In this document: positions 29,051 to 38,410 of the stretch, piece by piece
How the letters are laid out: each line of letters starts with the position of its first letter
Numbering within the stretch: the stretch's first letter is position 1
Source: Candidatus Dormiibacterota bacterium
GTDB taxonomy: Bacteria > Chloroflexota > Dormibacteria > Aeolococcales > Aeolococcaceae
Reading direction: 5' to 3'
Length of the DNA: 64,000 bases
Assembly: GCA_035652335.1 (NCBI GenBank)
Contig: DASRDZ010000077.1
Span: 17,025 to 81,024, forward strand
Position numbers and translations under genes: made by a program
Notes under the pieces: generated by a model
What the model was told of the DNA's origin: nothing
Databases searched by the model: none
The model's input: the letters and a program-made list of their open reading frames with translations, nothing else

Positions 29051-29173
29051 GCCGGGAAGTATCGCCGCGTGCCGGCGCCTCCGCCAGGGCCCGCCCGCAC
29101 TCGGGACGTTGGGCCCTGGTGCCCGTGCGCCGGCGGTCCCTAGCATTCACCCTGGACCCGCGCGCACCCCGGC

Positions 29174-29656
29174 GTGCGGACCGCAGGAGAGACGGTCGTG
29201 TTCCACAACATCCTCGTCGGCGTCGACGGCTCCGCGCACTCGAGGCGCGCCGTGCAGGAGGCGGCCGACATCGCCCGCTCCGAGAACGCGGAGCTGACCC
29301 TGATCAGCGCCTACAACTCGCTGCTGCCCTGGCCCGCGATGATGCCCGTCGGGCTCTCCCAGGACACCGTCGACGAGTTCGTCGAGACCGCCCGCGACGT
29401 CGCCCGTGGCGCCGTGGAGGAGGCGGCCAAGCTGGTGCCCGACGGAGTCCCCGTCCAGAAGCTGACCATCGACTGCCCGCCCGCCGACGCCATCCTCGAC
29501 CAGACACGCGAGGGCCGATACGACCTCGTCGTGGTCGGCTCGCGCGGCCGCGGCGACGTCGCCTCGATCCTGCTCGGCAGCGTGAGCCACCGCGTGGTCC
29601 ACGAGTCGCGCGTGCCCGTCCTGGTCGTGCACGTGACCGGCGAGCCCGCCTCCTGA
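29174..29656 (+). CDS. Universal stress protein (UspA family)
   Basis: HILVGVDGS...LVVVGSRGRG..GSVSHRVVHESRVPVLVV. The start could instead be the GTG at ~29198. Confidence 0.85.
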   Translation: MRTAGETVVFHNILVGVDGSAHSRRAVQEAADIARSENAELTLISAYNSLLPWPAMMPVGLSQDTVDEFVETARDVARGAVEEAAKLVPDGVPVQKLTIDCPPADAILDQTREGRYDLVVVGSRGRGDVASILLGSVSHRVVHESRVPVLVVHVTGEPAS

Positions 29657-29706
29657 GCAGGCTGCTGGCCGCCTGGGCGGCCTACGTCCACCACCATCGC
29701 CGGGGC

Positions 29707-31809
29707 GTGCTCACCGGCGCGGTGGTGGCGGTGGCACTGTCCCTGGTGGGGCTGGCGGCGGGCGCGAACTACAACGGCAACAACAGCGTGCAGACGGAGT
29801 CGGCGCGCGCCTCCGCGCTGGTGGCGTCGGAGCTTCCGCAGGGGCCGCCGTCGTTCACGCTGGTGGCGGGCAGCGCATCGCTGAGGGTCAACCAGCCCGC
29901 CTTCCGCACCGCGCTGGCCGCCGCTCTCGCGCCGCTCGGTGGTGATCCGCGCGTGACGTCGGTGACCACGCCGTACAACGCCGACGGCAGCGTCGTCGCC
30001 GAGCGGGTGTCGGCGGACGGCCACCACGCTCTCACCACGGTGGCGCTGGTGAACGGCGGCATCGCCACCTACCGCGAGGTGCGCACGCGCATCGCCTCAC
30101 CGTCGCTGGAGCTGCTCGCCACCGGTGCGCAGCCGGTGAGCAGCGACTACGACCGGCTCACCAACGACGACGCAGCGCGCGGCGAGCACCTCTCCATCCC
30201 GCTCTCTCTCCTGCTGCTGTTCGTCGTCTTCGGGTCGCTGATGGCGGCCCTGCTGCCCATGGCGGTGGCGCTCTTCGCCAGCTTCGGCGCGCTGGCGCTG
30301 CTGGGACTGCTGACGCGCGTGATGGACGTCGACTCGTCCGCATCCAACGTCACCATCTTCCTCGGGCTCGGGCTGGGCATCGACTACTCGCTGTTCATCG
30401 TCTCGCGCTTCCGCGAGGAGCTGCGGCGCGGGCAGGACGTCGAAGGCGCGCTGCGCGTCGCCTACGCCACGGCGGGGACGGCCATCACCGTGTCGGGGCT
30501 CACGGTGGCGATCGGCTTCAGCGGGCTGCTGTTCTTCGCCAACACCTGGATGGTCGCCTTCGGGCTCGCGGTCATCGGCGTGGTGCTGCTCTCCATCGCC
30601 GGCGCGCTCTGCGTGCTGCCGGCGCTGCTCTCCCTGCTCGGCGGCACCGTCGACCGCGGACGCCTATGGCCGCGGCGCCCGCGCAGCGACGAGGAGGGCA
30701 TGTGGCACCGGTTGGCCACCGCGGTGATGCGCCACCCGGTGGCGGTGCTGCTGCCGACGCTGGCGCTGCTGCTCCTGCCGCTGGCCTCGTTCGTGCAGAT
30801 CAAGACCGCAACCGACCACCTCACCGACCTGCCCGCCGGCGCCGAGTCGCGCCGGGGCGCGGAGCTGGTGGCGGCGCAGTTCCCCGGGGCGGCGCAGACC
30901 ACCGTCGGGGTGGTGCTGCACTGGCCCGGCGGCACGGCGGTCACCCCCGCGCACACCGCCGAGGCGACTGCGCTGGCGCACCGGCTGGCGGCGCTGCCCG
31001 GCGTGATCGGCATCGCCAGCGCCGCGGGGCGCGACGTCATCGTGCTGCGCGTCAGCAGCGGCGTCACCGAGCGCAGCGTGGCGGCGCGGTCGCTGGTCAC
31101 CGCGGTGCGCGGGCAACCGGCGCCCGCCGGCGCAGAGCTTCTGGTCACCGGGCAGACTGCGTCCGACATGGACTTCGTGTCGTACATCGACTCGCGCGTG
31201 CCCGTCGCCATGGCCTTCGTGGTGGTGATGACCTACGTCGTGCTCTTCCTGCTCTTCGGCTCGCTGCTGCTGCCGCTGAAGGCGGTGCTGATGAACCTGC
31301 TCTCCATCACCGCCTCCTTCGGCGCGCTGACCTGGGTGTTCGTGCAGGGACACCTCAGCGGGCTGCTGGGCTTCACACCCGCGCCCATCGACCCGGTGCT
31401 GCCGGTGATCCTCTTCTGCGTCCTCTTCGGGCTCTCCATGGACTACGAGGTCTTCCTGCTCACCCGCATCCAGGAGGAGTACCGCCGCACCGGCGACACG
31501 CGTCGCGCCATCGCTCTGGGCCTGGAGCGCAACGGCCGCCTGGTCACCGGCGCCGCCCTGATCATGGTCGTGGTCACCGCCTGCTTCGGCCTCGCCGACG
31601 TCGTGGTGGTGAAGATCATCGGGCTCGGCGCCGCGCTGGCCATCCTGGTCGACGCCACCGTCGTCCGCGCCCTCGTCGTCCCCGCTGTGATGTGCCTCAT
31701 GGGCCGGGCCAACTGGTGGGCCCCACGCCCCCTCCTCACCCTGCGCAGCCGCCTCGGCGCCGCATTGCCGCACGCCCGCGGCTCCGACCCCGCCCGTTAT
31801 CAGATATGA
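29707..31809 (+). CDS. MMPL-family (RND-superfamily) transporter
   Basis: Two MMPL repeats with ~12 TM. The 5' end is uncertain: the frame is open from the Usp stop (29653), but the first canonical start is the GTG at 29707. Confidence 0.75.
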   Translation: MLTGAVVAVALSLVGLAAGANYNGNNSVQTESARASALVASELPQGPPSFTLVAGSASLRVNQPAFRTALAAALAPLGGDPRVTSVTTPYNADGSVVAERVSADGHHALTTVALVNGGIATYREVRTRIASPSLELLATGAQPVSSDYDRLTNDDAARGEHLSIPLSLLLLFVVFGSLMAALLPMAVALFASFGALALLGLLTRVMDVDSSASNVTIFLGLGLGIDYSLFIVSRFREELRRGQDVEGALRVAYATAGTAITVSGLTVAIGFSGLLFFANTWMVAFGLAVIGVVLLSIAGALCVLPALLSLLGGTVDRGRLWPRRPRSDEEGMWHRLATAVMRHPVAVLLPTLALLLLPLASFVQIKTATDHLTDLPAGAESRRGAELVAAQFPGAAQTTVGVVLHWPGGTAVTPAHTAEATALAHRLAALPGVIGIASAAGRDVIVLRVSSGVTERSVAARSLVTAVRGQPAPAGAELLVTGQTASDMDFVSYIDSRVPVAMAFVVVMTYVVLFLLFGSLLLPLKAVLMNLLSITASFGALTWVFVQGHLSGLLGFTPAPIDPVLPVILFCVLFGLSMDYEVFLLTRIQEEYRRTGDTRRAIALGLERNGRLVTGAALIMVVVTACFGLADVVVVKIIGLGAALAILVDATVVRALVVPAVMCLMGRANWWAPRPLLTLRSRLGAALPHARGSDPARYQI

Positions 31810-31819
31810 TAACACCACC

Positions 31820-32383
31820 ATGCTGGACGCGCCCAGCCTCATCCGCCGCCACCGTCTCGCCGCGAGGCTGAGCCAGCGGGAGCTCGCCCGGCGTGCCGGC
31901 ACCTCGGCCGCGACGCTCAACCGCTACGAGTCGGGCCGGGTTGACCCCACGGTCAGCACGCTGAACCGCATCCTCCACGCGTCCCTGCCGCCACGGCGCA
32001 GGTGGGCCTCGGTCGCGGAGCTCGCGCCGGCCATCGCCGGCGAGCTGAAGCGCGGCAGCGCCACCGCGGCGTGGCGGCACACAGCCGGCGAGTTCCTCGA
32101 CGACCACCTCCGCGCCAGTGCGGCGGACGTCTCCCTCGCCGTCGCGGACGCACCCGCGGCGACCGGGGATGCGCGCGCCGACGCTCTCGCCGCGGCGCTC
32201 GCCGAGTACGTCTGCGCACTGCACGGCATGCCACCGCCGCCGTGGGCGCAGGCGCCCATCGAGGTGACGCCGTGGTGGTTCGTCGCCGGCGCGGCCTTCC
32301 ACGCCCTGGCGCTGCGCGAGTCCCCGCCGAGCTTCGCGCGACGCGGCATCTTCGTCACCGCCGGCGCGGTGGAGCGCGTCTGA
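31820..32383 (+). CDS. XRE-family HTH protein with an uncharacterised C-terminal domain. Putative antitoxin/regulator partner.
   Basis: LAARLSQRELARRAGTSAATLNRYESGRVDPTVSTLNRIL is a canonical Cro/C1 HTH. The C-terminal ~120 aa is Ala/Pro-rich and unrecognised. Confidence 0.6.
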   Translation: MLDAPSLIRRHRLAARLSQRELARRAGTSAATLNRYESGRVDPTVSTLNRILHASLPPRRRWASVAELAPAIAGELKRGSATAAWRHTAGEFLDDHLRASAADVSLAVADAPAATGDARADALAAALAEYVCALHGMPPPPWAQAPIEVTPWWFVAGAAFHALALRESPPSFARRGIFVTAGAVERV

Positions 32384-32385
32384 CC

Positions 32386-32907
32386 ATGTTCGACCGCGAC
32401 GCGGCACTGCAGGCCCTCGACGCACTCGCGGCGGAGCTGCATGACCGGGGCGTGACCGCGCGCGTCTTCGTCGTCGGCGGTGCCGCGATGGCGCTCGCCT
32501 TCGACGCGCGGCGCATGACACGCGACATCGACGCGGTGTTCGAGCCGAAGAGCGCCGTCTGCGACGCGGCTCGGGCCGTCGCCGAGCGCCTGCAGCTTCC
32601 CGACGACTGGCTCGACGACGCGGTCAAGGGCTTTGTCCCCGGCACCGATCCCGACGCCGTGCCCATCTTCGAGCGTCCCAATCTCTCGGTCGCGGCGGCG
32701 TCCGCGCGCTTCCTCCTGGCGATGAAGCTGCGGGCGGCGCGCGTCGAGCAGGACGCCGACGACATCCGCTTCCTCGCCAACCTGCTCGGTCTGCACAGCG
32801 TGGACGCGGTGCTCGACGTCGCACGCGAGCGCTACGACATCGCATCGCTGCCGCCGCGTGCGGGGTTCCTGGTGGAGGAGCTGTTCGGCGCGCCGCCCGC
32901 GCCGTAG
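32386..32907 (+). CDS. Minimal nucleotidyltransferase-fold protein (AbiEii/DUF1814-like). Putative toxin-like partner.
   Basis: hGGxAxxL...RxTxDIDxVF matches the MNT-fold signature (VFVVGGAAMALAF...RMTRDIDAVF). Its ATG lies 3 nt after the upstream stop. Confidence 0.5.
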   Translation: MFDRDAALQALDALAAELHDRGVTARVFVVGGAAMALAFDARRMTRDIDAVFEPKSAVCDAARAVAERLQLPDDWLDDAVKGFVPGTDPDAVPIFERPNLSVAAASARFLLAMKLRAARVEQDADDIRFLANLLGLHSVDAVLDVARERYDIASLPPRAGFLVEELFGAPPAP

Positions 32908-32915
32908 GCGCCGGA

Positions 32916-33404
32916 TCAGGCCGCGGAGCCGTCCTCGGATCCGGCCGCGGTGGCCTCGCGGTGGAGCATGGTGCGCAGCAGGCGCAGCAGCGAGGCGCGC
33001 TCGCGGTCGTCGAGGGTGCGCAGGCCAGGGATGTCGGCGAAGAGCTCGTCGACGACGCGGGCGCGCATGGCCACGCCCTTGCCGGTGAGGACGAGGTTCT
33101 TGCTGCGGCGGTCGGCGGGGTCGACCTCCCGGCGCGCCAGGCCGCGCTCCTCGAGCATGTCGGCGATGGCCGTGACGAACGAGGCGTCGCACTGGATGCG
33201 CGACCCCAGCTCCTTCATCGAGACGGTGCCGTCGATGACGCGCAGCGCCTTGGCGCAGGGCGGCGGGAGGTCGTAGCTCTGCGCACCCCGCTCGATGTGG
33301 TCGCGGACGTGGAGGAAGAGCTGCCCCATGGCGTCGACCAGCTCGGCGGGGCACGCCCGGTGGCCGCGCGCTCGCCCGTGTCCCTTCCAACCGTCCCGGG
33401 TCAT
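32916..33404 (-). CDS. MarR-family transcriptional regulator
   Basis: MarR wHTH (...SMKELGSRIQCDASFVTAIADMLEERGLARREVDPADRRSKNLVLT...). Confidence 0.85.
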   Translation of the reverse strand: MTRDGWKGHGRARGHRACPAELVDAMGQLFLHVRDHIERGAQSYDLPPPCAKALRVIDGTVSMKELGSRIQCDASFVTAIADMLEERGLARREVDPADRRSKNLVLTGKGVAMRARVVDELFADIPGLRTLDDRERASLLRLLRTMLHREATAAGSEDGSAA

Positions 33405-33433
33405 GCCGCCGAGTATACATGAGTCACCCGAAA

Positions 33434-33463
33434 GTTGACAGACTGAAGTATCTCGGCGTAGGC
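33434..33463 (+). promoter_or_regulatory. Candidate sigma70-type promoter (TTGACA-18-TAGGCT) in the marR/MFS divergent intergenic region
   Basis: TTGACAgactgaagtatctcggcgTAGGCT lies ~45 nt upstream of the MFS start. This is a relatively AT-rich intergenic stretch. Confidence 0.3.
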
Positions 33464-33505
33464 TGCCGGGTACTTCACCAGCTCAACGATTGGGTGCCTC
33501 AGGCA

Positions 33506-34978
33506 ATGACGACGTCTCCCGGAGCGGCTCGCAGGACCGGCCCCTGGCTGGTCCTGGTTCTGGTGGCGCTGGCCCAGTTCATGGTCATCCTCGACGCCAC
33601 CATCGTGAACGTGGCCCTGCCCTCGATCCAGCGAGGGCTGCACTTCTCCAACGAGAACCTGCAGTGGGTGGTCAACGCCTACACGCTGGCCTTCGGCGGC
33701 TTCCTCCTCCTCGGCGGACGCGCCGCCGACCTCTTCGGGCGCAGGCGGCTGTTCCTGGCCGGCATCGCCCTCTTCTCCGTCGCGTCGCTCGTCAACGGCC
33801 TCGCCACCTCGGCGACGATGCTCGTCGTCGGCCGCGCCCTGCAGGGGCTCGGCGGCGCGCTGGTCGCACCCGCCGCGCTCTCCATCATCACCACGACGTT
33901 CGCCGAGGGACGCGAGCGCACCCGCGCGCTGGGCGTGTGGAGCGCCATCTCCGTCGGCGGCGGCGCGGTGGGGCTGCTGCTCGGCGGCATCCTCACCGAC
34001 CTCGTGTCGTGGCAGTGGGTGTTCTTCGTCAACGTCCCGGTCGGCGCCGTCGCCTTCCTGCTCTCGATGCGCTACGTGCCCGAGAGCCGCGCGTCGGCTG
34101 GCGGCACGCGCATCGACGTCTGGGGCGCGGTGTCGATCACCGCGGGCCTGCTGATCGCGGTGTACGCAATCGTCAACGTGCAATCGGCGGGCTGGGTCAG
34201 CGCGCAGACGCTCGGCCTCGGCTCGCTCGCCCTGGCGCTGGTGGCCTCCTTCCTCGTCATCGAGTCGCGGCACTCGCATCCGCTGATCCGCCTCGGCATC
34301 CTCGGCATCCGCTCGCTGGCGGGCGCCGACACCGCCATGCTGCTGGTCGCCTCCGGGCTCTTCGGGATGTTCTTCTTCGCCTCGCTCTACGTGCAGGACG
34401 TGATGCGCTACAGCCCGCTGCGCGCAGGCCTCGCCTTCCTGCCGGTGACGGCGGGGATCATCACCGGCGCAGGACTCTCGCAGCAGCTCATCCGCCGTCT
34501 CGGCGTGCGCGCCGTGGCGGTCACCGGCATGAGCCTCGCGGCGGTCGGGCTCCTGGTGCTGAGCCGCATCCCGGTGCAGGGCAGCTACCTCGGCGACCTC
34601 CTCCCAGGCCTGATGGCGATGTCGGTGGGCATGGGCCTCACCTTCGTGCCGATCACGCTGATCGCCACCACCAACGTCGACGCCGCCGACGCCGGCCTGG
34701 CCTCGGGGCTGCTCAACACCGCGCAGCAGGTGGGCGGGGCGCTCGGCCTCGCCGTCCTGGCCACCATCTCCGCCGACCGGACCACCGGCCTGATCACCAC
34801 GCTTGGCCACGCCCCCAGCGCGGCCGACCGCACCGGCGCCCTGGTGAGCGGGTTCCAGCTCGCCTTCCTCGTCGCCGCGGTGCTCATCGCCGCCGGCGCG
34901 GTGCTGCTCGGGGTCGTGGTGCGGCGCCGCCACGTCGAGCGCATCGACCTCGAAGCCCAGCCCGCGCTGGCGGCCTGA
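33506..34978 (+). CDS. MFS transporter, DHA2 (EmrB/QacA, 14-TM) drug:H+ antiporter family
   Basis: LVLVLVALAQFMVILDATIVNVALPSIQRGL...LLLGGRAADLFGRRR are classic DHA2 motifs. Trimmed to the ATG at 33506. Confidence 0.85.
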   Translation: MTTSPGAARRTGPWLVLVLVALAQFMVILDATIVNVALPSIQRGLHFSNENLQWVVNAYTLAFGGFLLLGGRAADLFGRRRLFLAGIALFSVASLVNGLATSATMLVVGRALQGLGGALVAPAALSIITTTFAEGRERTRALGVWSAISVGGGAVGLLLGGILTDLVSWQWVFFVNVPVGAVAFLLSMRYVPESRASAGGTRIDVWGAVSITAGLLIAVYAIVNVQSAGWVSAQTLGLGSLALALVASFLVIESRHSHPLIRLGILGIRSLAGADTAMLLVASGLFGMFFFASLYVQDVMRYSPLRAGLAFLPVTAGIITGAGLSQQLIRRLGVRAVAVTGMSLAAVGLLVLSRIPVQGSYLGDLLPGLMAMSVGMGLTFVPITLIATTNVDAADAGLASGLLNTAQQVGGALGLAVLATISADRTTGLITTLGHAPSAADRTGALVSGFQLAFLVAAVLIAAGAVLLGVVVRRRHVERIDLEAQPALAA

Positions 34979-35098
34979 CCGCCGCGGCCGGCCGGCGGAC
35001 CGGCCCGCCGTCCCGCGTCCGATCCGCACAGTCTCTTCACGCGGATTTACCCCGCGTGCATTGTGGTGCGGAGCGGCCGGACTTCTAATGAGCGCCTC

Positions 35099-35485
35099 AT
35101 GAATGGCGTCCTGATCGTCGACGCCGACCCCGACGTCCGCGAGGTGCTCACCGCCGTGTTCGTACGTCGCGGCTTTCGTGTGCGCGGCGCGGGGGAGTCC
35201 GACGCCGCCATCCGCATGGCCCGCGACGAGGCGCCCGACGCGCTGGTCACCGCGCTCGACCTGAAGCCCATCGACGGCATCGAGCTCATCGAGCAGGTGC
35301 GTGCGCTGCCCGGGTGCGGCGACCTGCCCGTGGTCATCTTCTCGGCGGCCACCCGCCACGACGTCCTCGACCGCATCGGAGACCGGCCCCTGGCGCGGAT
35401 GGTGATCGTCACCAAGGGTGGCCCGCCCCAGCGGGTGGTCGAGGCCGTGCACGGGCTGCTCGGACAGGGCGACGGGGACACCTGA
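35099..35485 (+). CDS. Stand-alone response-regulator receiver (CheY-like) domain protein
   Basis: LIVDADPDVREVL...ALVTALDLKPIDGIEL..VVIFSA. The phospho-acceptor Asp lies in ALDLKP. Confidence 0.8.
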   Translation: MNGVLIVDADPDVREVLTAVFVRRGFRVRGAGESDAAIRMARDEAPDALVTALDLKPIDGIELIEQVRALPGCGDLPVVIFSAATRHDVLDRIGDRPLARMVIVTKGGPPQRVVEAVHGLLGQGDGDT

Positions 35486-35521
35486 CGCCGGGGCGCGCGA
35501 GGCGCGGGGATACTGCAGGAC

Positions 35522-38410
35522 ATGACGCGAATCCTCTGCCCCGTCCTGGTCGGCCGCGAGGCGGAGCGAGGGCGGCTCGAGGCTCTGCTGGAGTCGGCGC
35601 GGCGCGGGCGCGGCTCGGTCGTCTTCCTCTGCGGCCCCGCGGGGATGGGCAAGTCGCGTCTCGCCGCCGAGGTCGCCGGACGCGCCGCGGCGCTTCGCAT
35701 GCCGGTGCTGCAGGGGCGCAGCGTCCCCAGCCGCGTGCCCGTCCCCTACCGCCCCATCGCCGAGGCGCTGCTGGCGGCGTCGCCGGTCGCGCCGGTCGCC
35801 GCGCCGGGAACGGGCTCCGGCTTCGAGACGGCGCTGGCCACCATCGTTCCCGCCTGGCAGGGCGAGGCCACCACCGCCGCCGCGGCGTCGCCCGTGGTCA
35901 TCGCCGAGGCCCTGCTGCGCGCGCTCCGCAACCTGGCTCCCGAGGCGGGCTGCCTGCTCGTCCTCGACGACCTGCAGTGGGCCGACCCTGAGACATTGCA
36001 CGCGGTCGAGTACCTCGCCGACCACACCGCCGGCAGCAGCGTCCTCTGCATCGCGACGCTGCGCGACGAACCCGGCGCCGAGGCCATGGACCTGCTCGCC
36101 CGCCTCGACGCGCGGCGCGCCGCGGAGGTGGTGCGATTGCAACCCCTTGCAATCGAGGCGGTGACCGAGATGGCTCTGCGCAGCCTGGGCGCGGCGGGGC
36201 TGCCGCAGGAGGTGACCGCCTTCCTCGGCGACCACGCCGAGGGCACGCCGTTCCTGGTCGAGGAGCTGCTCGCCGCCGCCGTTGCCGACGGTGCGCTGGT
36301 CGACACGGCGCAGGGCTGGACGGTGGCCGCCGCGATCCCGCGCGTCGTCCCCCAGAGCTTCGCCGCGACGGTGCGTGAGCGCCTCGCCACCCTCGGCGAC
36401 GCGGGTCGCCGCTTCCTCGCCGCGGCGGCGCTCCAGGGCCGCAGCTTCGACTGGCGCCTGGCAGCCCGCGCCGCAGAGATGGACGGCACCGAGGCGCGCA
36501 CGTGGCTCGACCGCGCCGCCGGCCTGCAGCTCCTCGCCGCCCACGCCGGCGGCTTCCGCTTCCGCCACGCGCTGACCCGGGACGCCCTCCTCGACCAGCT
36601 CCTCCCTGCCGAGCGCGCCACCCTCGCCGCGCGCTGCCTGGAGGGACTCGAATCCGCGGCGCCTGCGGGCGAGGATTGGCGCCACCTGGCCGCCGACCTG
36701 GCCGAGCTGGCCGGCGAGCCCGACCGCGCTGCGGAGCACCTCCTCGCCGCCGGCCGCGACGCGCTCTCGCGTGGCGCGCTGGACAGCGCCGTCGCCGCCC
36801 TGCAGCGCGCCGCCGTCCTCGCCGCCGATCCCGCCCGGCGCGCCGCCGTGCTGGACGCCCTCGCCGAGAGCCGGTCCACCACGGGTGACCTGCCGCGCAC
36901 CCGGGAGGCCGTCGAGTCCCTGCTCGCCGCCCTGGCGGAGATCGGCGCCCCGCCCGGCCCCCGTGCCCAGGCCCATCTCCTGCTGGCGCGGTGCGCCGTC
37001 AACGCGGCGCAGTTCACCTCCGGCAGCGAGGAGCTGGCCCAGGCGCGCCGTCTCGCCACGGCCGCCGGCGACAGCGCCCTTGCCGCCCGGATCACCGCCG
37101 TCGACGCCCACCTCGCCATCGGCGAGGGACGGCTCGACGAGGCCGAGGCGCTGGCCACCCGTGCCGCGGAGGAGGCCGGCGCCACCGGCCAGCCCGAGGT
37201 GGCCTGCGAGGCGCTCGAGGTCGCCTCGCGCTGCGCCAGGACCCGCGACGCCGGCGAGGCGGAGGCGATCGCCACCCGCGCACTGCAGGTCGCCGAGGAC
37301 GCCGGCCTCGCGTTCTGGCGCATGCGCGCCCTCTACCAGCTCGGTGTCGCCCGCATGTTCCGCGATGGCGAGGTGGAGACCCTGCGCCGGGCGCAGGATG
37401 CGGCCGGCCGGCTGGGCGCGGTGGCCACCGCGACCAGCCTCGACCTGGAGATCTCGGCGGGGCTGGAGGCGCAGCACCGCCTGGAGGAGGCGCGGGCCAC
37501 CGCGCTGCGCTGCGCCGAGATGGCCCACCGGCTGCAGCTGCGCATGGTCGAGGCGCTGGCCCACGCCTTCGTAGCGGTGATCGAAGCCGCGGGGGGCGCG
37601 CGCAGCCCCATGGAGGCGGCCATCGCACGCAGCCTGGAGCTTGGGGACGGCAACGCCGAGCTGGTCGCCGCGCTCTGGGGCGACGCGCGTGCCGTGGCCT
37701 CGCTCGCCGCCGAGGACCGCGCCCGTGCCCGTGCCGAGCTGGCCCACGCGGTCTCGCTCTACGGCCCGGCCCTTCCGGCGGTGCCGCACCTCTCAGCTGC
37801 ACTGCTCACCCTGGTGGTGGCCGTCGACGGCGGCGAGCCGGACTTCGCGGCCACGAGCGGCGTCACCCAGGTCAACTCCCAGGGTGGCGGCTACGTCGAG
37901 TTCGCCCGCGCGGTGATGCTGGGCCGCGCCGGTCGCGCCGCCGAGGCCTGCGCCGCCGCCGCCCGCGGTGAGCAGCGCCTCAACGCCATGCCCTGGTACC
38001 GCCACCTCTGCCGCCGCCTGGCCGCCGAGGCCGCCATGCGGGACGGCTGGGGCGACCCCACGGCGTGGCTCACCGAGGCGGCCGCCTACTTCGACGCCGA
38101 CGGCAGCGACCGCCTGGCCACCGCCTGCCGCTCCCTGCTGCGCCGCGCCGGAGTGCGCGTCGCCCGGCCGACTCAGGCGGGCCGAGCGCTGCCCCAGCAC
38201 CTGCGCGACGCAGGGGTGACGCCGCGCGAGGCGGAGGTCCTGACACTGGTCGGCGAGGGCCTCCCCAATCGCGCCATCGCGGAGCGGCTGGCGCTCTCGG
38301 AGCGCACGGTCGAGCAGCACGTGGGGTGGTTGAAGCAGAAGCTGGGGATGGAGACGCGCGCGCAGCTCGCCGTCTACGCCGCGTCGGGACCTTCTCTCCG
38401 GCGCGCTTAG
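35522..38410 (+). CDS. LAL-type (large ATP-binding LuxR family) transcriptional regulator
   Basis: N-terminal AAA/NB-ARC-like P-loop (FLCGPAGMGKSRL), an extended TPR-like middle region, and a C-terminal LuxR HTH (REAEVLTLVGEGLPNRAIAERLALSERTVEQHVGWLKQKLG). Confidence 0.85.
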   Translation: MTRILCPVLVGREAERGRLEALLESARRGRGSVVFLCGPAGMGKSRLAAEVAGRAAALRMPVLQGRSVPSRVPVPYRPIAEALLAASPVAPVAAPGTGSGFETALATIVPAWQGEATTAAAASPVVIAEALLRALRNLAPEAGCLLVLDDLQWADPETLHAVEYLADHTAGSSVLCIATLRDEPGAEAMDLLARLDARRAAEVVRLQPLAIEAVTEMALRSLGAAGLPQEVTAFLGDHAEGTPFLVEELLAAAVADGALVDTAQGWTVAAAIPRVVPQSFAATVRERLATLGDAGRRFLAAAALQGRSFDWRLAARAAEMDGTEARTWLDRAAGLQLLAAHAGGFRFRHALTRDALLDQLLPAERATLAARCLEGLESAAPAGEDWRHLAADLAELAGEPDRAAEHLLAAGRDALSRGALDSAVAALQRAAVLAADPARRAAVLDALAESRSTTGDLPRTREAVESLLAALAEIGAPPGPRAQAHLLLARCAVNAAQFTSGSEELAQARRLATAAGDSALAARITAVDAHLAIGEGRLDEAEALATRAAEEAGATGQPEVACEALEVASRCARTRDAGEAEAIATRALQVAEDAGLAFWRMRALYQLGVARMFRDGEVETLRRAQDAAGRLGAVATATSLDLEISAGLEAQHRLEEARATALRCAEMAHRLQLRMVEALAHAFVAVIEAAGGARSPMEAAIARSLELGDGNAELVAALWGDARAVASLAAEDRARARAELAHAVSLYGPALPAVPHLSAALLTLVVAVDGGEPDFAATSGVTQVNSQGGGYVEFARAVMLGRAGRAAEACAAAARGEQRLNAMPWYRHLCRRLAAEAAMRDGWGDPTAWLTEAAAYFDADGSDRLATACRSLLRRAGVRVARPTQAGRALPQHLRDAGVTPREAEVLTLVGEGLPNRAIAERLALSERTVEQHVGWLKQKLGMETRAQLAVYAASGPSLRRA

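Follow-up and report, generated by a model that had tools for sequence, protein, structure and literature searches.

What kind of module is formed by two small genes that lie almost end to end in a genome of Candidatus Dormiibacterota, the first encoding a helix-turn-helix (HTH) protein and the second a minimal nucleotidyltransferase (NTase)? The genes are found in a 64,000-nucleotide stretch of contig DASRDZ010000077.1 (assembly GCA_035652335.1, positions 17,025 to 81,024), which we refer to in its entirety as the window. A previous, sequence-only reading had likened them to an AbiE-type or type IV toxin-antitoxin (TA) module with an atypical first gene. We favor, with a probability of roughly 60%, an autonomous AbiE/MenAT-like NTase toxin-antitoxin cassette with a different, previously undescribed antitoxin family. 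We read the pair as a TA module because the NTase is homologous to proven toxins and retains intact catalytic and phospho-acceptor residues, because its obligate upstream partner evolves faster and carries a neutralizer-like domain behind interchangeable DNA-binding heads, and because an operator-like palindrome tied to the HTH occurs together with the behavior of a mobile cassette found in TA islands. The features on which this argument turns are as follows.

31796-31813, no strand: perfect, AT-rich palindrome GTTATCAGATATGATAAC; candidate operator of the gene 1 HTH
31820-32383, plus strand: gene 1, 187 amino acids (aa), an XRE-family HTH fused to a novel C-terminal domain (CTD); proposed antitoxin and autorepressor
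31841-31978, plus strand: Cro/C1 (XRE) HTH of gene 1, residues 8-53
31994-32380, plus strand: CTD of gene 1, residues 59-187
32386-32907, plus strand: gene 2, 173 aa, a compact DUF6036/AbiEii-superfamily NTase; proposed toxin
32473-32532, plus strand: motifs I and II of gene 2, V30-G31-G32, 14 residues, then D47-I48-D49, with R43 and T45 inside the stretch
32725-32763, plus strand: motifs III and IV of gene 2, K114-L-R-A-A-R119 ... Q-D123-A-D-D126

The two genes are as tightly linked as had been described, although the gap measures 2 nt rather than 3: gene 1 ends with a TGA at 32381-32383 and gene 2 begins with an ATG at 32386. Position as the upstream gene of a pair with so small a gap is an antitoxin-like trait of gene 1. 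The ATG of gene 1 at 31820 is the earliest in-frame start possible after a stop codon, and a 100% identical protein entry has been recorded from a Candidatus Dormibacteraeota metagenome-assembled genome. The mechanical open reading frame (ORF) of gene 2 begins at 32002, but we place its true start at ATG 32386 because the resulting N-terminus, MFDRDAAL, aligns with the N-termini of 43 homologs. We found no second copy of the module elsewhere in the window.

By sequence, gene 2 falls into the AbiEii/MenT (DUF1814) superfamily as one of its compact members. Its best Pfam match is DUF6036 (PF19502; 29.8 bits, cut-off 23.6), a family that has no described function or partner in the literature that we searched, and since the match covers only part of the profile (positions 2-75 of 164), we regard gene 2 as a divergent branch of DUF6036. 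A plasmid homolog of gene 2 matches DUF6036 over profile positions 9-116. The AbiEii family (PF08843) also passes its cut-off, at 26.0 bits against 22.5 but over profile positions 3-58 of 238 only, and DUF2204 is matched as well; the literature searched on DUF2204 held nothing relevant. In the AlphaFold model of gene 2 (pLDDT 89.5), a Pol-beta-type NTase core is followed by the C-terminal helical region that had been anticipated from the sequence. Fold searches with this model returned NTases exclusively, and in a Foldseek search of the PDB MenT1 (8an4) ranked first with a probability of 0.99, with ANT(2'')-Ia next. These two are the closest solved structures, and of them MenT1 has the greatest sequence identity to gene 2. 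A profile of 44 homologs compared to PDB sequences likewise gave MenT1 as its best match (E 0.0065), aligning the motif III/IV stretch of gene 2 with the MenT1 segment AMKLLAR...QDRSD, which bears K137 and D152. When the N-terminal half of the NTase was searched against the PDB as a single sequence with phmmer, only noise was returned.

Does gene 2 retain the residues that an active toxin of this superfamily needs? In AbiEii, motifs I and II take the form hG[G/S]x15DhD, with a spacer longer than the usual 9-13 residues and with R63 four residues before D67, while motif III in DUF1814 proteins is of the KLxAaxxR type and motif IV is a +DxxD pentad (PMC3985639). Gene 2 carries all four motifs, with conservation counted here over 73 full-length loci. 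The hGG...DhD signature that had been picked out from the sequence is real: motif I is V30-G31-G32 (G31 71/73, G32 73/73), and after a 14-residue spacer motif II is D47-I48-D49 (D47 73/73, D49 66/73), with the DUF1814-specific arginine, R43, four residues before D47 in 72 of 73 loci. Motif III is a lysine with hydrophobic flanks, M-K114-L-R-A-A-R119 (K114 73/73, R119 72/73), in which the arginine stands at +5, not +7, and which aligns to AMK137LLAR of MenT1. Motif IV, Q122-D123-A-D-D126 (D123 73/73, D126 71/73), leads with a glutamine and not with lysine or arginine, exactly as does MenT1 (PQD149RSD152).

The likeness to MenT1 extends to the phospho-acceptor. The motif II stretch of MenT1 comprises R37, T39, R40 and D41xD43 (PMC11375011), and R43-x-T45-R46-D47-x-D49 of gene 2 reproduces MenT1 R37-x-T39-R40-D41-x-D43. 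T39 of MenT1 is auto-phosphorylated on antitoxin binding, and S78 of MenT3 occupies the same position, two residues before D80 (PMC11375011, PMC7450476). T45 of gene 2, which lies two residues before D47 and is invariant (73/73), is predicted to hold this Ser/Thr phospho-acceptor position. Experimentally important residues have been mapped in AbiEii (G49, R63, D67, D69, K173 and D192; PMC3985639) and in MenT1 (T39, D41, K137 and D152; PMC11375011), and their counterparts in gene 2 are all invariant or nearly so. Given that T45, D47, K114 and D123 are conserved in 73/73 loci and D126 in 71/73, gene 2 looks catalytically competent.

The other member of the pair carries the novel domain. Gene 1 had been described as a Cro/C1-type HTH plus an uncharacterized domain, and both halves of that description held. 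Residues 8-53 match Pfam HTH_3 at 43.7 bits (cut-off 23), which identifies an XRE/Cro-C1 HTH, and residues ~59-187 have no match in Pfam, NCBIfam, PADLOC or the PDB. In the AlphaFold model (pLDDT 92.9), this CTD of ~129 aa is all-helical with two tiny strands. Its conserved features are PxxTGDxRxDAxxAAxxE, P140-x-W142, PWWF (151-154) and SPxxFxRRGxF (168-178). The CTD family is thus undescribed in all four resources, and the literature that we searched holds no description of it or of an XRE plus AbiEii-type pairing. The proteins themselves are already in databases under generic names: 'helix-turn-helix transcriptional regulator' and 'DUF6036 family nucleotidyltransferase', the latter being the name that NCBI records give to homologs of gene 2.

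If the two genes form one module, they should be found together in other genomes. To collect relatives, one genome from each GTDB species was pattern-scanned with the NTase alignment; 487 relatives were confirmed and 80 loci kept. In 79 of these 80 loci, all found via the NTase alone, the NTase is preceded on its own strand by a CTD-type ORF whose end lies 0-32 nt away; the one remaining locus is on a contig of 751 nt, too short to hold an upstream CTD gene. Neither of the two outcomes that the sequence-only reading had named as fatal to itself, a fold for gene 2 other than an NTase and a pair not conserved together, was observed. The loci span at least six phyla: Actinomycetota, Chloroflexota, Dormibacterota, Bacillota, Gemmatimonadota and Armatimonadota. 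Solirubrobacterales, Acidimicrobiia, Glycomyces, Longispora, Mycobacterium and others represent the Actinomycetota, and the remaining groups include Chloroflexota, Dormibacteria, Bacillota (Moorella), Longimicrobiales and Fimbriimonadales. Spacing between the two genes ranges in the relatives from -7 to +32 nt, overlaps included. The association also holds when approached from the CTD: wherever distant CTD representatives come with downstream DNA (3/3), an NTase is the next gene (E 3e-54 to 6e-34), and versions of the CTD that lack the HTH retain their pairing with the NTase.

The two proteins have also diverged together. Pairwise distances of the CTD and of the NTase are correlated with a Mantel r of 0.94, a value reached in 0 of 999 permutations. 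The CTD diverges faster, with a mean identity of 0.47 compared to 0.57 for the NTase, and it is the less conserved of the two in 84% of pairs. Because of the 79/80 loci, this co-divergence and a natural fusion of the two proteins described below, we conclude that the pairing is far beyond chance. One Dormibacteria relative (L082:5471-6092, contig_6971) has an NTase split over two frames downstream of an intact gene 1 homolog, which could mean that the toxin gene is decaying or that long-read assembly introduced an indel.

The HTH, by comparison, comes and goes. The first gene of the pair does encode an XRE-type HTH where AbiE systems have the COG5340 winged HTH, as had been pointed out, but the NTase's constant partner is the CTD, not the HTH. 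Among the 80 loci, the XRE HTH is present in ~54 and missing in at least 12, where a stop codon just before the CTD leaves the CTD alone at ~125-135 aa. When 1.84 billion representatives were searched with a profile of the CTD only, the matches formed at least 1,387 clusters at 50% identity. The domain is always C-terminal, and the lengths of the proteins are bimodal (~120-150 aa and ~180-250 aa). The heads found before the CTD in 127 representatives are varied, with XRE HTH in 24, HTH_37 in 13, MarR in 3, and ribbon-helix-helix (RHH) and HicB in 1 each; most of the 127 have nothing detectable ahead of the CTD, and no Pfam family covers the CTD in any of them. Some individual records are irregular. 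The XRE HTH and the CTD lie in different frames at L034:3239-3538 and in L063, which may be frameshifted gene 1 homologs or sequencing errors. At L049:864-3965, a short CTD closes a very long open frame whose N-terminal part resembles a helicase or restriction-type ATPase; this record holds a run of N, and it may reflect a defense-island context or an assembly artifact.

The two partners are also found joined, on a plasmid. In pMK12478 of Mycobacterium kansasii ATCC 12478 (WP_007172361.1; L090:2374-3453), the CTD and the NTase form one continuous 359-aa ORF, with the CTD at residues 38-182 (E 3e-39) and the NTase at residues 191-358 (E 1e-48). This fusion gene adjoins ParDE. The short N-terminal segment of the fusion looks like an excisionase/MerR-type HTH, and it has no Pfam match. 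By tblastn, eight more plasmids, from M. intracellulare and M. avium, show the same match (37.8% identity, query residues 21-167). The actinobacterial plasmids on which tblastn locates the NTase number 33 in all. One plasmid, from M. intracellulare, carries the NTase together with a 114-aa CTD gene, and their neighbors are Xre/RES and PIN-nuclease pairs and an integrase; one CTD relative adjoins a MazE gene.

The settings of the pair are varied. The flanking genes of 83 loci fall into at least 37 unrelated neighborhoods, a number that is a lower bound since single-linkage synteny clustering over-merges loci via common paralogous families, and two close Dormibacteria relatives have flanks quite unlike those in the window. 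The pair therefore behaves as an autonomous cassette, and its MMPL/MarR context in the window is incidental. With two linked genes in an autonomous cassette, variable contexts, mobile elements and a palindrome linked to the HTH, the pair has the general makeup that would be expected of a TA module.

How might such a cassette be regulated? The palindrome GTTATCAGATATGATAAC has 7-bp arms and a 4-nt center, and ends 6 nt before the gene 1 ATG in a region of ~73% GC. It overlaps both a -10-like TATGAT (31805-31810) and the stop codon of the upstream MMPL gene (31807-31809), which is only 10 nt from the gene 1 ATG. No second match to the palindrome occurs in the window, where 0.13 are expected by chance. 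Two Dormibacteria relatives share its core, TATCAGATATGATA, ahead of gene 1, although the genes that precede it differ. At this position other clades carry versions of their own, namely ATATC-N6-GATAT in Acidimicrobiia, TATATCTAAATGTATATA in Solirubrobacterales and TATAGCGAATTCGCTATA in Glycomyces. In these versions, the right half overlaps a TAnnnT -10-like hexamer 8-15 nt ahead of the start codon. A loose AT-rich TAT..N..ATA motif at -47..-1 is found in 43 of 54 loci that bear the HTH and in 1 of 15 that lack it, compared to a background of 0.45% of random 47-mers. Such a pattern would be expected if the HTH recognized an operator within its own promoter, and it is suggestive of a bicistronic mRNA, with a short leader or none, driven from a promoter that overlaps the palindrome.

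The pair shares traits with several known systems without being identical to any of them. DUF1814 toxins are already known with unrelated antitoxins, namely the MazE-like MenA1, COG5340 proteins and COG4861 proteins. MenAT1 of Mycobacterium tuberculosis (Rv0078B/Rv0078A) is similar in having a compact toxin (MenT1 is 196 aa, gene 2 is 173 aa), in the R-x-T-R-D-x-D stretch with its phospho-acceptor Thr and the K...QDxxD residues, and in placing the toxin gene downstream of the antitoxin gene. The antitoxins differ: MenA1, which is related to MazE and 68 aa long, has no DNA-binding domain, and MenAT1 lacks transcriptional autoregulation, whereas here the partner is a 187-aa protein with an XRE HTH, a 129-aa helical domain and a candidate operator. 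The sequence similarity of the two toxins, moreover, is marginal at the E-value given above. AbiE and MenAT3/MenAT4 are similar in a different way. They too are bicistronic, with a two-domain DNA-binding protein (a head plus a neutralizing C-terminal domain) followed by a DUF1814-type NTase with motifs I-IV, and with a palindromic operator-like site at the promoter; the score of gene 2 for AbiEii is, as noted, above the Pfam cut-off. However, AbiEi, MenA3 and MenA4 belong to COG5340 and combine a winged HTH with another C-terminal domain, and since their models do not match gene 1, an AbiEi-like CTD was rejected. AbiEii, MenT3 and MenT4 are also larger, at ~290 aa, and the AbiEii match of gene 2 takes in 55 of the 238 profile positions. 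Because the COG5340/AbiEi antitoxin was looked for and is not there, the pair is not an AbiE system in the strict sense. The AbiE-like resemblance that had been proposed stands, but the type IV label does not: AbiE was recently moved from type IV to type VII, the class of antitoxin-induced toxin auto-phosphorylation (bioRxiv 10.64898/2026.01.19.700257).

These comparisons suggest how a TA cassette of this makeup could work. By analogy with MenT1, MenT3 and AbiEii, gene 2 would block translation by extending tRNAs at their 3' acceptor ends with nucleotides, in a reaction with NTP and Mg2+. The CTD of gene 1 would bind the NTase directly and neutralize it: it might sequester the toxin, move Thr45 closer to the bound NTP and thereby make gene 2 phosphorylate itself, or do both. 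Auto-phosphorylation, the type VII route, has been demonstrated for MenA1/MenT1, MenA3/MenT3 and AbiEi/AbiEii, and MenA1, MenA3 and AbiEi all appear to act by inducing it in their toxins; it is plausible here because T45 is invariant. The XRE HTH of gene 1 would in turn bind GTTATCAGATATGATAAC where it overlaps the -10 of its own promoter, repressing a bicistronic, translationally coupled operon.

A non-toxic two-subunit enzyme is the alternative that survives best, and we consider it unlikely. In such an enzyme, the NTase would nucleotidylylate a protein or a small molecule (an antibiotic, as do ANT(2'')-Ia and LnuA), with the CTD as a substrate-recognition or regulatory subunit and the HTH controlling expression. 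The Foldseek TM-score of the gene 2 model to ANT(2''), 0.50, is slightly above that to MenT1, 0.45, but by sequence the order is reversed, with 14% identity to ANT(2'') and about 23-24% to MenT1; taking ANT(2'')-Ia (AadB) and LnuA together, identity to gene 2 is 14-18%. The Pfam matches of gene 2 are to DUF6036, AbiEii and DUF2204, and a Pfam search found no match to the aminoglycoside or lincosamide NTase families, while the DUF1814 hallmarks (K114...R119, QDxxD, and the motif II Arg and Ser/Thr) are all conserved. Efflux-type genes (MMPL, MarR and MFS) flank the pair in the window, as would fit an enzyme of this sort, yet that context is not conserved across the neighborhoods, and on plasmids the cassette sits among TA pairs. 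The natural CTD-NTase fusion would suit a two-domain enzyme as well; antibiotic NTases such as ANT(2'')-Ia and LnuA, however, work alone and have no obligate partner gene.

We find it improbable that the polarity of the module is reversed, as in the HEPN-MNT (HepT/MntA) type VII systems, with the NTase as an antitoxin that nucleotidylylates and inactivates a toxic CTD protein. HEPN-MNT systems are likewise two-gene modules with a small Pol-beta-type NTase, so that minimal NTases have a precedent as modifying antitoxins, and the NTase is the more conserved partner in our pairs. The CTD also has an invariant polar cluster (T115-G116-D, R119, D121, E129). Yet it lacks a conserved catalytic-type motif, with both a conserved His and the HEPN Rx4-6H absent, and it matches no HEPN or other toxin family. 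The XRE, MarR and RHH heads fused to the CTD are usual for antitoxins, the operon opens with the CTD gene, proven toxins are among the homologs of the NTase, and structure disfavors the reversal too; the MNTs that act as antitoxins are ~100 aa. The more specific idea of the CTD as a HEPN-like toxin was rejected for want of Rx4-6H and of a family match, with MNT structures remote from gene 2. Chance adjacency of an ordinary XRE regulator and an orphan NTase, for which one could cite how common such regulators are and how often genes are closely spaced in compact genomes, is already excluded by the comparative data: the 79/80 loci in at least six phyla, the co-divergence, the fusion, and the HTH-less versions of the CTD that are still paired with the NTase.

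Several observations weigh against the TA cassette that we favor. For the DUF6036-like family there is no functional evidence, in any member, for toxicity, a tRNA target, binding or phosphorylation, and the literature searched never mentions DUF6036. The DUF6036 and AbiEii Pfam matches span only the N-terminal ~70 residues of gene 2, and the PADLOC AbiEii models match it weakly (best E 3.3e-5). A generic scan called neither a consensus sigma-70 promoter nor an intrinsic terminator at the pair, which is why the proposed promoter rests on the conserved AT-rich palindrome and the -10-like element. The GC content of the pair equals that of its surroundings and gives no sign of recent acquisition in this genome, so recent horizontal transfer into it was rejected. 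An association with phages was likewise rejected, as neither 50,697 phage records nor the IMG/VR viral contigs contain a homolog, and nothing therefore points specifically to abortive infection. Finally, a covalent fusion of CTD and NTase is unusual for a classical system with a labile antitoxin and fits the regulatory or specificity subunit of a non-toxic enzyme equally well.

The genes around the pair are those that had been described from the sequence, with an MMPL transporter upstream (ending at 31809, plus strand) and, downstream, a MarR gene (32916-33404, minus strand) followed by an MFS transporter (~33503-34978, plus strand). The long mechanical ORF of the MMPL gene (29119-31809, plus strand) overlaps, in another frame, a separate universal stress protein (Usp) gene (29174-29656, plus strand; family match E 3e-30). 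The MMPL match begins only at ~29695, so the real start of that gene lies well downstream of 29119. The sole sigma-70-like promoter match in a 2-kb scan falls between MarR and MFS (33412-33441, minus strand), as expected for the divergent intergenic region of a MarR-controlled efflux pair. Further along the window (35063-38410, plus strand), a stand-alone response-regulator receiver of 140 aa precedes a 962-aa ORF that by eye has an ATPase-like N-terminus and a LuxR-type C-terminal HTH and is unrelated to the gene pair.

What would such a cassette mean for the superfamily? The known DUF1814-type NTase toxins, AbiEii and MenT1-4, poison translation by extending the 3' ends of tRNA, and their antitoxins are strikingly different from one another; two of the antitoxins were recently found to work by setting off auto-phosphorylation of the toxin. 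To these systems the cassette adds two things: a compact branch of NTases whose sole annotation is 'DUF6036' and in which no catalytic or phospho-acceptor residue has been lost, and a large new family of partner domains with interchangeable DNA-binding heads. Whether the CTD is in fact a large new antitoxin or regulator family dedicated to the DUF6036-like branch of MenT/AbiEii NTases is, in our estimate, an even bet; if so, CTD and NTase would make up a new TA family that includes natural single-chain fusions and is widespread in Chloroflexota, Dormibacterota and Actinomycetota, the last with plasmids of non-tuberculous mycobacteria among its carriers. No new category of biology is opened by this, and its interest lies mainly with specialists in toxin-antitoxin systems and NTases. 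For them, the natural CTD-NTase fusion is a ready-made construct for structural work, and thousands of gene pairs now listed as 'hypothetical' or 'HTH regulator', including those on M. avium-complex and M. kansasii plasmids, gain a testable function. With the cassette one could also test cleanly whether auto-phosphorylation induced by the antitoxin holds throughout the superfamily. If neutralization does proceed by induced auto-phosphorylation of Thr45, the CTD would be a third, structurally unrelated antitoxin fold to have converged on that mechanism.

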